A stretch of DNA of 64,000 nucleotides from Callorhinchus milii (lineage: Eukaryota). The notes beneath the pieces were generated by a model. That model was not told the DNA's origin and did no database searches. It saw only the letters and a list, made by a program, of their open reading frames with translations. The DNA lies in contig NW_024704765.1 of the NCBI RefSeq assembly GCF_018977255.1, positions 4,836,001-4,900,000 of the forward strand, written 5' to 3'. Positions within the stretch are counted from its first letter, which is position 1; every line of letters starts with the position of its first letter. Shown piece after piece: positions 25,796 through 38,246 of this stretch. A program made the position numbers and the translations under genes.

Positions 25796-28700
25796 ATGCG
25801 AAAGCGCATTCTGATATGGAAGATGCGTTTTTGCCTTAGAGTCGTCCTTCTGACGCTGTTGACCCAGAAATCAAAGGTCCTGTTCGACACGTCCATACGG
25901 GGTGAGACGTGGCTCTTTTCCATTTTTTTTATATATATGTGGTAGAGTTCAGCGTCTCCAGAATTCCGCCTCGCCCTCAGCCCTTTCTTGAAGCCTGTGC
26001 CTCGATCGCATACGGTTTACATTATTATAACGGCAACAGCTTGCATTTATAAAACGCCCTTCGCGTGGGGCAACGTCTCGGAGCGCTTGACAGGGCAATG
26101 CAGATCAACTGAGTGATCCCCTCCCCCCGAGAGGAGGCAGGGGGCGCGGGGGGGGTGGGGTGGGGTGGGGGAAGTTGACCGAAAGCGTAATCAAAGAGGT
26201 AACATGTCATGAGACAGCGAGATAATATTTATCCATTCAATTTTAAGGGCTGAGGCAGTGATTGAATCTAGTTTTTAAAGTAACGGACTTAAACAGGATG
26301 ACACGAGAACCACTAGGCCCCAGTGACTTATTTGGTACCAATATAATATTAATAATCATCCTTGCATTTGATATGATGCCTTATCACATCATTGAGACAT
26401 CTCAAAGCGCTTCACAGAATGTTCTGTAAAGTGGAGTGACTGTGTACAGGACTGAGACGTTAATACTAACTAACCCCGTCTCTGATGAAGAGGGTTTAAA
26501 CGGTTTCCAATTAACTTTTCCGGCAGCAATGTTGTAATCAGTTTGTATCTTTTGTTTCCTTTTGGCAGATCCCTATGAAGATGAATGTAAATCCAGGGAA
26601 ATAATTTGTCACAAGTGGGCCATTTGCAGGCTGGATATTGTGAGCTGGTTGTTTTACTGTCAGTGTCTTCCTGGATACACTGGCGATGGCCTTAATAACT
26701 GCCAAGGTAAGAACACTTAGCAGCCAAGTCACTGAGGTGCATGTTATACGAGGGTTTGTTTATAAGAAGACCAACTAGTGACTATTTTTTGGGGGGGGGG
26801 TTGGTTCGAGGGAGTGTGAGGGGTAAATCTTAACTAGCTCCAATGTGACATATTTGGCAATGGAATGTCAGAATCGAGCCAATCCTCAATGAAGGTCTCT
26901 TGACCAGTTCCTGAGCCAGGCAGGTCCATGGTATTCCAGGGCACTGCTGGTGACAGCACAGCCCAGCCTCGCTCATCGGCAGGAACTGGAAGGCCAGACC
27001 AGTCACTGGGGGCAGAGAGTCATCCCACTCAGCTCCTGTTAACCCTGCCAAAGCCCTAACGGGTAGGGTGGTCCTAGCTGGACAAGCAGCGGAAAAGCTT
27101 GCCAGCCAGCGGCCTCAATGAGCAGGCTATGCTTTTTTTGCTGGTTAGACTCCAGCAGTTATTCAAACGTACACTCTGGGGCCCCTAAGGCTTGACTCTT
27201 GCCAACCTGCACCTAATTCTGTGTGTGTGGGGGGTGGTGGGGGGGGGGGTGGCGGGGAGGTTTTCATGTTAACTGGCTGCTCTTCTCGCTTTTGTTTGTG
27301 GGATCTTGTTGTCTGAAAAATGACATCACTTTTTGCCACGCTCCATGGTAATATCTCCAGCCAAGCGCTTTAAGGCATGACCCAAGATGCTATAAAAGCA
27401 GATTATTTTGCAGTAAATTTCTCACTCTGGCGAAAGGAAATGATCTGCTATCTCAAGAAATTGACTAACACATCTTGTTTATTTCCTGTCAAGAACCTGA
27501 AGAGATGATCCAAATCTCTGACAAAAGGATTTGCAGTGCACAAGGCACCCAAACTTGCCTCATCACAAAGTCGCTGGGAGAACACGTCACATTCAATATT
27601 TCGATCACGGGTGATTATAATCCCAAGCAGATTGCATGGTTTAAGTTTTATTCAGCTGAAGGATCAAGTTATCACAGGTACAAAGGCTGTACAATAGCAG
27701 GTGAATAAAATACACACCATATTGCAAGCTAAAATTATTATTTATAAAGGAATATTATTATAATTAGTTGGGCACGTGCCTCGCATTGTTGAGGGCAGCT
27801 GAGCTTGGGGACAGGCTAAAGGGAGGTCCTTATATTGTGAATCAGTGACGTGTGTATTTTTAACCTGTCTTTCCACGTTTGTAAAGGCTCAGATTCCATT
27901 TTCCAAAATTTGACTCCATTTCGCTCTTGTGTTTCATCGCCTTGGGAAGTCCTCCTGACACGAGAGGTGCTATACAACTGTAATTTGTTGTTATTGTGGA
28001 GCAATCAGTTGAAAGAGATCAATTGGTCATTGCTTATCCCCCCCTCAGTGGGAGTTATGTCAGATATATAATGGGGAATATCTGAGTGGCACTGAGATTA
28101 AACAATAACTTGCATTTATATAGTGCTCTTCACGCAGGTAGCGTCTCGGAGCGCTTAACAGTGGCGGAGCACAACACAGAGCTGGGGGGGAGGGAGGAGG
28201 TGACCGTAAGCACGCTCGAAGAGGAAGGCGATCTGAAAATGTGGAAGGAGGGGGCAAAGTGGAGGGATTGAGGGAGAGAGTTTCGGGGGCGTAATTGCTG
28301 AAAGCCTGGCCGCCGATAGCAGAGTGGAGGGGACGAGGGTCAAGCAGGAGGCCCGAGTCAGCCAACCAGAGGTGACGGGTGGGAGGGTGGGGAGTCAGCA
28401 GGTGGGAAATTCCATCCGAGTCTGGATTTGCCACATTTATTTAGCATTTTAATCCGCCCAGAATTCAGCTGGAGTTAAGACCCAATTGAACAATTCACCA
28501 ATTTCCGGGCTCAGAAACGCTCTGTAAAAATGGAGGAAATCTAGAGCCGAGGAGAATTTCTCTCCAAATATGTGCATTCTTCATCAACCTCGAGGTAATT
28601 TCAGGGGAAAAAAGTTTCAAGGACAATCATGGGGTGAAGTTTGCACCGTTTTGCGGTGCGTTCCTTGTGATGAGTGTGGCTTTCTTTGCAAATTAGCACA

Positions 28701-36000: not shown

Positions 36001-38246
36001 CTATCCAGGTTAGGGTTAGGATCGTGGAATCTTACAGCACAGAAGGAGGCCATTCCGCCCATCTGGTCTGTACTGGGTCTTTGAAAGAGCTACCCAACTA
36101 GTCCCCCCCCCCCCTCCCCTCCGCTCTTACCCCATAGTCCTGCCAATGTTTCCTTTTCACGTATCTGTCCAATTCCCTTTTGAAAGCTACCGTCGAGGTG
36201 TAAAGACTGGTGAAGCTCTCCAGGACACTTCCCTGCGTGAAAGGACACGATATAAACACAAGTTGTTGTTGTTGTCGTCGTCGTTGAGTAAAGACTACGG
36301 CAGTCACCAGAGAGCTTTGAGAGCCGTGACTTGGTGAAGCAGAACCCAGCGCTCAGGATTTATGTAACGTCTCTAGTTTTTCAGAGAGACTTGCCCTTAA
36401 ACGGAATTGGTGACTGAATAATTAATGGGAGCCGTGCAACTCGTCTTTATAAATAGGCCTCTGTTTACTTAGAAATTTATGCTAATCCTGATCCAGAAAT
36501 GATCCTGATGTGAAGCACGGTATCTCTCTTTCTCTCTCTCTCTCTCTCAATCTCTCTCTCTCCCTCGCTCTCGGTGACGTGATGTGTCCCTGGGTGGGCG
36601 CTTTTTTCGCCTCCCGCTGGTTTGTTTGAAATAAAACCCTTTTTCTCCGCAAACCGAGATATTTTATTGAATTTTAATCAAAAACAAAATCGGATTTTAT
36701 TTCTTTTGGTTCAATTCTTTTTTTCTTGATGGGATTTGTTTGAATGCAAACGTTTTTACGTGAAACAAAAATAAATAAATAAATAAATAAATAAATAAAT
36801 GAAATGTGATTTTATTAGATTGCATTTTATTTATTTGATTTTGTTAAGTTCTATTAAAAATTCAAAATGTAATCAAATTAATTATTATTTTTTGAATGCG
36901 AAAGTTTTCACTTTATTAAAAGCAAATCCATAAAATCGATTTCATGGATTTTTTTTCAATAGTAAAAACAATATTAGTTTAGTTAAACAATAACTTGCAA
37001 TTGTATAGCGTCCCTCATGAGTCGCGTAATAATAATAAATAATAATAATAATATTAATCCTTGCATTTGATGCAGGGCTTTATCACAACTTCTCAGATCG
37101 CTTCACAGTATAGCGACTGTGTGTTTGTGGGTGAAATATTAGTACAATATTAATATTAATAAATGAACTCCTCCTCCCCACCTCTACCCCCACAGTGCTG
37201 GGCAAGTGGTCGGAGTGGTCCCCCTGGTCCACATGTACGCAGCTTTGCTCCGGGATCACCAGGAGAATCCGAGTGTGCAACAACCCAGCCCCGGCCCACG
37301 GAGGACTCCCGTGCACGGGGACGTTCGAGGAGAACCTGGCCTGCCGGCACAGCGACTGCCCAAGTAACCGCCCGCCCGGCCACTCTCTGTATCTCTCTCG
37401 CTCGCTCCCTCGCTCTCCGGCCCCCGCTCAATGCCATCCGTTCCCCTCCTCGCATAGTTCCGCAACCCGCCCCCTCCCCCCCATTAACAGTTCAGGTGAT
37501 CACCTCTCCCTCCTTTCCCCCCTCCAATCCTCTCCCACCGCTGCCCTCTCTGCCCTCCAACCCTTCTGATAGCAACCCCCAGCTCGGGTGCAAATCCTTG
37601 ACTGTCCAACGCCTTGTTACTTGCTGTGTATGTGAATGGCGCTGTGAAAATGTAATGTGTTGTTGTTGTTGCCCGGTCTCTTGCTTGGTTTCAGCTGATG
37701 GTGGCTGGTCTCCGTGGACCTTCTGGTCTCCCTGCCCGTCCAGCTGTGGGATCGGTGTGGTCAAACGCTCCCGCTTGTGCAACAACCCTGCTCCGGAGAA
37801 CAGCGGCAATCCCTGCCTCGGGCACGACTACGAGGAGGGATCGTGCGGATTTCCGGTAAGGATGAGACGCGTGGGATTTTTCCTCTCCACCTTGCACCGC
37901 CCTTGGCTTGAACCCCATCCTCCTGCTCGCTGCCCCTCCCTCTCTCCCTTCCCCCCCCCATCTCTTTTTAATATTGCTCGTTTACTTTTGCCCGTCTTCA
38001 GATCGCACACGAAGACTTTCCTCTTCGACAGCGCCTACGACCACCATTCCCCCCCCCCCCCACCCCCCACCTTTCTCCCCTCTTGACGTCAAACGACACC
38101 ATCACTAAGCGCTCTGAACACTACTCCGGGTGAAGGCCGCTGTGTAAATGTTAAGTCGTTGTTGTCGCTGTTGTTCTGCACAGCTGGATTACTGCAAGTA
38201 TCTCACCCGCCCTATGGACGCCGTCGTGAAGGGAAGATGGATTTAA
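25796..38246 (+). CDS. Unnamed secreted EGF / Ig-like / Ca-EGF / thrombospondin type-1 protein, about 615 aa, 13 exons
   Basis: In-phase exons: 25796-25901 (signal-peptide-like [22 protein letters not shown]), 26569-26706 (EGF), 27494-27677, 29763-30010 (GC donor), 30909-31083, 31457-31557 (beta-rich, Ig-like), 32745-32831 (4-Cys EGF, GC donor), 33997-34125 and 34621-34743 (DIDEC/DVDEC...NTxGSY Ca-EGF), 35412-35576, 37196-37363, 37695-37855 (WSxWS..C..C TSP1), 38184-38246 (stop). Total 1848 nt with no internal stop. Confidence 0.85.
26880..27220 (+). repeat. Unclassified interspersed repeat (~340 bp)
   Basis: Homologous copies at 46200-46510 (-), 1-125 (+) and a fragment at 43050-43115. Confidence 0.65.
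28105..28390 (-). mobile_element. L2-type LINE 3' fragment
   Basis: Minus strand [13 protein letters not shown]...[14 protein letters not shown]-type tail on the plus strand. Confidence 0.65.
28871..29210 (+). mobile_element. Deu-domain-type SINE
   Basis: GGCTCAGTTGGTAGC head, then GAGACGTTACACCAAGG...CAGGTGGACGTTAAAGAT...GGTGTCCCGGCCAAC; relatives at 39880-40070 (-), 48780-49110 (+) and 51070-51270 (-). Confidence 0.65.
29310..29697 (-). mobile_element. tRNA-derived SINE interrupted by an L2 tail
   Basis: SINE head GCGCTAACC|...|CTACGCTACAGGGCTCCAC is split by about 78 nt of L2 3' tail at 29601-29678. Confidence 0.8.
32245..32569 (-). mobile_element. tRNA-derived SINE, young short subfamily, full length
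   Basis: Reverse complement of the 21567 copy with few differences. Confidence 0.92.
32970..33410 (-). mobile_element. L2-type LINE 3' end (~440 bp)
   Basis: Minus strand encodes [65 protein letters not shown], a typical L2 ORF2 C-terminus. Confidence 0.85.
33532..33544 (+). promoter_or_regulatory. Candidate CTCF site (intronic)
   Basis: CCACCAGGTGGCG, a full match to the CTCF core, in a non-repeat island between an L2 fragment and a SINE. Confidence 0.55.
33629..33946 (-). mobile_element. tRNA-derived SINE, young short subfamily, full length
   Basis: Near-identical to 32245-32569 except in the 3' stem-loop. Confidence 0.92.
35214..35366. other. Assembly gap (153 N)
   Basis: Run of N in the intron between the last EGF exon and the first TSP1 exon. 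Confidence 0.99.
36770..36800. repeat. (AAAT)n microsatellite
   Basis: Visible perfect tandem run. Confidence 0.9.

Follow-up and report, generated by a model that had tools for sequence, protein, structure and literature searches.

Hemicentin-1 (fibulin-6) is a secreted protein that combines immunoglobulin (Ig), TSP1 and calcium-binding EGF (Ca-EGF) modules, in which dozens of disulfide-bonded Ig domains are followed by TSP1 repeats, a G2F domain, EGFs and a fibulin end. Two Ig domains also stand N-terminal to TSP1 repeats in the UNC5 ectodomain. Properdin has TSP1 repeats only and no Ig domain, thrombospondin-1 carries its TSP1 repeats before EGFs, a vWC domain, type-3 repeats and a C-terminal lectin-like domain and has no Ig either, and SCO-spondin is a protein of several thousand residues with vWD, LDLa and TIL domains. 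The V domains of CD2, CD48 and CEACAM, which are membrane-anchored immune adhesion proteins, are a precedent for a V-type fold that lacks the disulfide bond between strands B and F. Here we describe a gene at 25796..38246 on the forward strand of a 64,000-nucleotide stretch of the Callorhinchus milii genome (contig NW_024704765.1, positions 4,836,001 to 4,900,000; this whole stretch is called the window below). Its product is built from modules of these types, in an order that matches no named family in the libraries searched.

In searches of language-model features (Atlas), hemicentin-1 scored 0.81 and the UNC5 ectodomain 0.85, and no cluster scored above 0.85 with a whole protein of the family as query. 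Unlike hemicentin, the protein has 615 residues, two Ig folds that both lack the B-F disulfide, EGFs placed before the TSP1 repeats and no G2F. In contrast to UNC5, it has no transmembrane helix and no ZU5 or death domains, EGFs flank its Ig pair, and its Ig region has no match at the sequence level. Among PDB sequences, the three TSP1 repeats matched properdin and thrombospondin-1 best (E 1e-30 and 1e-29), whereas EGF and Ig modules here fill residues 36-430. SCO-spondin, ADGRB1 and nidogen appear as automatic labels of orthologues; the labels are explained by the TSP1 or EGF repeats that these proteins have in common with the family. Pfam scans of orthologues gave no G2F, fibulin C-terminal domain, NIDO, GAIN/7TM or ZU5/death domain, and those of seven long orthologues no vWD, LDLa or TIL, in proteins of about 600 residues. 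Compared with CD2, CD48 and CEACAM, the first Ig domain (Ig1) adds an N-terminal cysteine pair, an FYPN insertion and an F-G loop of about 30 residues; its match to CD48 was weak (E 0.62). The protein would work in the manner of other modular extracellular proteins with Ig, EGF and TSP1 domains, but in the Pfam and hydropathy scans it lacked the features that define hemicentin, SCO-spondin, UNC5, ADGRB and properdin. A preliminary description of the locus had judged its order and size to be unlike those of hemicentin, SCO-spondin, ADGRB and properdin. We rejected the idea of a fragment of hemicentin or SCO-spondin.

Results

The 13 exons sum to exactly 1848 nt, which encode 615 amino acids and one terminal stop in frame. 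All 12 intron acceptors are AG, and the donors are GT in 10 of the 12 introns and GC in introns 4 and 7. A single AATAAA (38415..38420, forward strand) lies in the approximately 1 kb downstream of the stop. When the catshark orthologue was used as a tblastn query, 12 of the 13 exons were matched collinearly (exons 2-13, the signal exon being unmatched), and four orthologue queries gave no match in the window outside these exons. These ordered matches to the catshark protein, which had no others in the window, rule out a chance chain of exons. The self-repeats, whose matches make up 24% of the window, overlap none of the 13 exons. A gap of 153 N (35214-35366) lies between exons 9 and 10, but the ends of these two exons correspond to catshark residues 432 and 434, so that no exon needed for collinearity is hidden there. 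The reading as an artefact or chance chain of open reading frames (ORFs) was rejected on the collinear matches and the lack of repeat overlap, and that as a pseudogene was rejected as well. The 12.5-kb locus is a real, intact gene, and the model proposed earlier was recomputed exactly. The gene, which looks single-copy and functional, belongs to an unnamed deuterostome family and encodes a predicted secreted modular glycoprotein of ~66 kDa.

Two GC-AG introns within one 13-exon gene are worth recording (donors at 30011-30012 and 32832-32833), as is the richness of the introns in short interspersed repeats (e.g. 30665-30840, 32260-32570 and 33630-33950), many of which start with runs of (AAT)n or (AAC)n.

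The order of modules, all on the forward strand, is a signal-like N-terminus, an EGF, two Ig folds, a short EGF with four cysteines, two Ca-EGFs and three TSP1 repeats, and it agrees with the order first proposed, according to both Pfam and the fold search. Exon 1 (25796..25901) holds the start codon and residues 1-35, which resemble a signal peptide in their hydropathy (9-residue maximum 2.47); the majority of full-length models of orthologues likewise begin with a hydrophobic stretch at this position. Exon 2 (26569..26706), found by tblastn, encodes the first EGF-like domain (residues 36-81, six cysteines; Pfam EGF_3, E 5e-08). After the linker of exons 3-6 comes the four-cysteine module of exon 7 (32745..32831), at whose end is the second GC donor. 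Exons 8 (33997..34125) and 9 (34621..34743) each encode a Ca-EGF (Pfam EGF_CA, E 1.9e-11 and 3.3e-10), with the acidic N-terminal motif and hydroxylation consensus motifs at residues 365 and 407, respectively. The TSP1 repeats are encoded by exons 10 (35412..35576), 11 (37196..37363) and 12 (37695..37855), with Pfam TSP_1 E values of 5.7e-13, 8.3e-11 and 2.2e-11; all three score above the Pfam cut-off and show WxxWxxW, the RxR strand and conserved cysteines. The third repeat has five of its six cysteines within exon 12. From the cysteine counts, the invariant C599 of exon 13 (38184..38246), the single cysteine of what was described earlier as a short tail, is most likely its sixth; this exon also holds a short polar tail and the stop codon.

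No stretch of 19 hydrophobic residues was found past residue 45 in 25 aligned rows (maximum Kyte-Doolittle value 1.0-1.53), and hydropathy revealed no transmembrane or glycosylphosphatidylinositol-like stretch in these rows, in accordance with the earlier claim that a transmembrane helix is absent. The protein is therefore predicted to be secreted, without a membrane anchor. RGD is absent from it. The net charge of the TSP1 part varies among orthologues from -11 to +8, and, as it is not conserved, we do not claim a basic heparin-binding tail.

The linker is ~235 residues long. Ig1 is encoded by exons 3 (27494..27677; C95, C103 and the C-strand W130) and 4 (29763..30010; V-type second half with the EDDFYPNxFW signature and the long F-G loop, ending in a GC donor). 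The exon 4 acceptor at 29763 was chosen over 29769 since the SY residues are kept in orthologues. The second Ig domain (Ig2) follows in exons 5 (30909..31083; W254) and 6 (31457..31557; strands F and G, with Ala in place of the F-strand cysteine). Both C-strand tryptophans are kept in at least 95% of 22 rows. The canonical B-F disulfide and the D-x-G-x-Y-x-C motif are missing: there is no cysteine in residues 104-317, and the motif position of Ig2 reads EDDFGNIRA. The linker had been called nearly cysteine-free, which holds for residues 104-317 but not for the invariant pair C95/C103 ahead of them, near the N-terminus of Ig1. Ig1 further has the FYPN insertion before strand F, and its F-G loop ends in a conserved LNPxxxRxxFxL. 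The linker can be used as a family marker because of these features, namely the cysteine pair, the insertion, the loop motif and the missing disulfide.

Pfam V-set or I-set domains did not exceed the cut-off in any of nine proteins (best I-set E 0.15, in reedfish), exons 3-5 gave no significant Pfam family, and in PDB sequence searches exon 4 found no solved relative and the linker profile reached a best E of 0.17. For the fold search we used an AlphaFold prediction for a snake orthologue, restricted to its N-terminal half and based on 45 aligned rows (predicted local distance difference test 78, predicted template modelling score 0.75); a poor full-length model (55 on the former scale) was left out of the fold search. 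Two beta-sandwiches were predicted. Among the rows listed, Ig1 was closest to antibody V domains (Z 9.1, root-mean-square deviation 3.0-3.4 over 94-98 residues), and Ig2 matched V/I-type domains (Z 9.1, 2.1-2.3 over 84 residues). In a wide fold search all 50 listed rows fell within Z 7.8-9.2, so that no particular Ig protein is singled out; an entry of 2B4/CD48 had Z 8.5. Ig domains of UNC5 and hemicentin were not among the listed rows, which excludes nothing; the rows are tied among many Ig proteins. The language-model features gave V-set at 0.92 for the linker. Both linker domains are, on the predicted model, of the Ig superfamily V/I-type fold with middling Z scores, as the first reading of two Ig-like folds lacking the canonical disulfide had anticipated. 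A profile comparison of Ig1 with Ig2 was marginal (probability 5%, 22 columns, score 19.8 against a maximum of 16.4 in 30 shuffles), and we do not claim an internal duplication.

With the linker or its parts as query, the combined searches returned 38 distinct clusters. At least 55 named species are represented: 12 elasmobranchs, two bichirs, two caecilians, one newt, 13 turtles, 14 lizards, eight snakes, platypus, echidna and the purple sea urchin. This tally was made from member lists, in which 15 of 40 and 15 of 19 members were listed for the two largest clusters. Full-length vertebrate models have ~580-720 residues and an identical module order. The Ig region shares 36-57% identity with vertebrate orthologues and 24-28% with sea urchin, and the catshark and urchin proteins share 36% over 548 residues (E 4e-116). 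On these comparisons the proteins form an ancient deuterostome family with a fixed architecture. The idea of retention in cartilaginous fish, and with it a gene specific to that group, is set aside by the orthologues in bichirs, amphibians, turtles, squamates, monotremes and sea urchin.

The trees broadly recover the expected species groups, and their deep branches lack resolution. In a tree without the urchin, the window protein was sister to all shark and ray orthologues (support 100/98), which is where a chimaera-like cartilaginous fish would be expected to fall. In monotremes the stem branch is long (0.85), two of the four cysteines remain in the small EGF, and the platypus model lacks the first EGF; together these suggest relaxed or changed function in early mammals. 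A skate cluster holds a near-complete ORF of 556 residues on a 2064-base contig, and a skink cluster one of 606 residues on a 2584-base contig. Since the gene spans 12.5 kb here, we infer that these contigs can only be spliced mRNA, each from a single transcript. Seven public fragments read through at the position of intron 4, and as two of them are urchin-like, this position looks ancient.

Some orthologue models depart from the common form. Many public models are truncated or skip exons around the GC-donor region. Models P0055, P0053, P0064 and P0007 lack whole symmetric phase-1 exons (one Ca-EGF, the first EGF or the first TSP1), which could reflect modules that are alternatively spliced or mistakes in the annotation. 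The urchin model P0070 (634 residues) ends in WSAWSxW, which resembles the start of a fourth TSP1 and suggests a further repeat or a truncated model.

No named, characterized gene occurred among the linker matches, and the family is already in the databases as uncharacterized models; what is new is an arrangement of known domains. Its members are called "uncharacterized" or "hypothetical", or carry automatic labels that, for this one gene, do not agree among species: SCO-spondin-like, ADGRB1-like, nidogen-like, coadhesin-like, MUP-4-like, ectin-like and actin-1-like. The preliminary description had foreseen both the lack of a named gene and the mislabelling. In the full-text literature, 12 orthologue gene or protein identifiers gave no paper and descriptive terms gave nothing relevant, within a coverage that leaves out most subscription journals and supplements. 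None of the 25 candidates of a word-indexed protein search with exon 4 was a relative, and no model of this gene from the window turned up; an exhaustive HMMER search found relatives where that search had returned none.

The linker searches, whose recall was poor, returned no sequence from therians, birds, crocodilians, frogs, teleosts, gar, coelacanth or cyclostomes, and none from invertebrates outside echinoderms. Only one of six and three of 10 clusters of two earlier searches reappeared in a third, and the exhaustive search runs on 50% clusters, which could hide members. The absences are suggestive for groups whose sequencing is dense, but because of this recall, loss in therians, birds, frogs and teleosts is only suggested. 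Human is not known to have a gene of such architecture. The gene had been thought ancient and possibly lost in mammals. Its great age is upheld by the urchin sequence, but any mammalian loss would be therian at most, since platypus and echidna keep the gene.

Upstream of the gene is an exact 22-nt tandem duplication (25194..25237), in a CpG-rich stretch between head-to-head genes. It contains two RFX X-box-like palindromes (25201-25213 and 25223-25235), ~560 bp before the ATG, which are the only strict X-box matches in the 64 kb. A scan with the X-box consensus gave four strand-hits, compared with a mean of 0.21 and a maximum of three in 100 shuffles. The CpG-rich stretch is possibly a bidirectional promoter. 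Adjoining the X-boxes, at 25285-25296, are a GC-box and an NRF1-like TGCGCATGCG element.

To the left of the gene are a leucine-rich-repeat gene (533-1105, forward strand), a DUF4731 exon (10190-10354, reverse; E 1.7e-21) and, head-to-head with our gene, a coiled-coil gene (16045-20438, reverse), which presumably resemble LRRC47, SMIM1 and CCDC27, respectively; these names fit the gene order. To the right lies the gene of the GABA-A receptor delta subunit, GABRD (39242-46012, reverse; E 5.5e-22), convergent with ours, the two poly(A) signals being ~470 bases apart (38415, forward, and 38884-38889, reverse). An acidic ORF (59172-59750, forward) is head-to-head with GABRD and is presumably CFAP74-like, a name that fits the gene order but found no support in Pfam or PDB. 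A third, looser X-box-like palindrome (57971-57984) stands ~1.3 kb before it. GABRD and the CCDC27-like gene are near neighbours in the window. In human, 1p36.3 holds both neighbour groups, and the PRKCZ-TP73 block (~1.7 Mb) separates CCDC27 from GABRD; relative to this order, the position of our gene coincides with a rearrangement boundary. A literature search on synteny gave unrelated gene lists only.

Discussion

The reading that we favour, without being as much as evenly sure of it, is that male germ cells or sperm use the protein as a secreted glycoprotein for adhesion or bridging. We favour it because expression in turtle testis, the X-box and a species range like that of CatSper combine. 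In gonads of two-year-old Pelodiscus, the orthologue LOC102458689 had fragments per kilobase per million (FPKM) values of 39/50/44 in testis, 2/5/8 in ovary and 3/4/0.7 in pseudo-female gonad (row 4369 of Table S2 of PMC8773217, whose column order was inferred). It is labelled male there, as are CCDC27, CATSPER1 and CFAP74 in the rows of that table, and its expression was about tenfold higher in testis than in ovary (log2 fold change 3.33, 8.5e-9). RFX2 activates genes of spermiogenesis and the cilium via promoter X-boxes (PMC4498915). CatSper, sNHE and sAC persist in echinoderms, cartilaginous fish and reptiles and are absent from birds and from most ray-finned fish (PMC6660944), and the range of our gene found so far resembles theirs, therians and amphibians excepted.

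From the usual roles of EGF, Ig and TSP1 domains, the protein might work as follows. The EGF-Ig-Ig head, which carries the long F-G loop and conserved motifs specific to the family, would bind one specific protein partner, and the Ca-EGFs, stiffened by calcium, would act as a spacer. The TSP1 part, with its WxxWxxW and CxxS/TC glycosylation motifs in three repeats, may fasten the protein to a glycan matrix or to the surface of a cell, and the whole would then be a soluble bridge or adhesin. The testis, probably its male germ cells, would produce the protein under the control of RFX. It would act on the sperm surface or acrosome, in contact between sperm and egg coat, between sperm or between sperm and the tract.

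Several points weigh against a role in sperm. The two X-boxes count as a single site that has been duplicated, were noticed before being tested statistically, and may equally serve the head-to-head CCDC27-like gene. CatSper is kept in therians, unlike the range found for our gene, and many unrelated genes, too, are missing from teleosts, frogs and birds. Ig matches to Izumo1 and SPACA6 (Z 9.1 and 7.8, 6-10% identity) were rejected as generic, being tied with dozens of unrelated Ig domains. The testis signal comes from one gonad-only dataset of one turtle, in which ovary expression is above zero and 7077 genes, GABRD among them, are male-up (PMC8773217). It found no replication in the supplements of PMC9219891, PMC7322844, PMC6997175, PMC6410691 and PMC10705357, which hold neither the gene nor the control genes. 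Amphibians are scored as lacking sNHE in PMC6660944, yet the gene occurs in caecilians and a newt. The fuller proposal, that an RFX-driven sperm or fertilization protein of the deuterostome ancestor was kept from urchin to monotremes and lost independently in therians, birds, frogs and teleosts, is possible but doubtful.

The X-box promoter would suit any RFX-driven ciliated cell, and the low ovary expression in the Pelodiscus table also fits secretion by motile-ciliated epithelia (ependyma, oviduct, efferent ducts or larval ciliary band), where the protein would organize an extracellular fibre or mucus-like layer in the manner of SCO-spondin and the Reissner fibre. TSP1 and EGF modules occur in SCO-spondin too. 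We nevertheless consider this unlikely, with the SCO-spondin domains vWD, LDLa and TIL absent from the seven long orthologues scanned; frogs, teleosts, birds and therians also own such epithelia yet gave no match, which is a weak point given the recall. A broadly expressed basement-membrane or elastic-matrix linker of the hemicentin or fibulin kind would likewise be secreted without an anchor, its Ig, Ca-EGF and TSP1 modules are common to hemicentin, and hemicentin and ADAMTS-like clusters are found near the whole turtle protein in Atlas (0.77-0.82, a lead only). In our judgement it is improbable all the same: the EGFs precede the TSP1s, G2F, a fibulin C-terminal domain and RGD are lacking, turtle expression has a tenfold testis bias, and HMCN1 and FBN1 are not among the Pelodiscus table rows listed.

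A soluble innate-immune recognition protein, with a V-type Ig head in the style of amphioxus VCBP or CD2/CD48 on a properdin-like TSP1 tail, seems decidedly unlikely. Properdin was the best PDB match of the TSP1 part, the tandem-V VCBP3 ranked second in Foldseek, and CD48 matched Ig1 weakly, but these matches are generic to their domains. The family looks single-copy and slowly evolving with a fixed architecture, while most immune Ig families differ. The matrix or innate-immune role suggested in the preliminary description gained no specific support, and the clues from expression and promoter point to testis or ciliated cells. A secreted modulator of guidance cues akin to a soluble UNC5 ectodomain is highly improbable, as the top Atlas match of the whole turtle protein, an UNC5D-like cluster, scored under 0.9 and is a lead only, three EGFs stand between the Ig and TSP1 parts, and, beside an UNC5B TSP1 pair at E 1e-13, the linker profile had no PDB match below E 0.17.

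What emerges is a conserved family, from sea urchin to platypus, that has been hidden under at least seven wrong automatic names. It is seemingly missing from the human, mouse, chicken, Xenopus and zebrafish models, which would explain why it has not been studied. If the testis lead is false, this would still be a clean case of an extracellular family without a name, which merits one, together with a profile made for its divergent Ig pair. If the lead is true, the gene would be a component of ancestral sperm biology that was lost at the monotreme-therian transition; and should the doubtful fuller proposal hold, it would fill a gap in the ancestral machinery of gamete recognition or of the sperm surface, and its tandem-Ig head, free of disulfides, would bind a partner.

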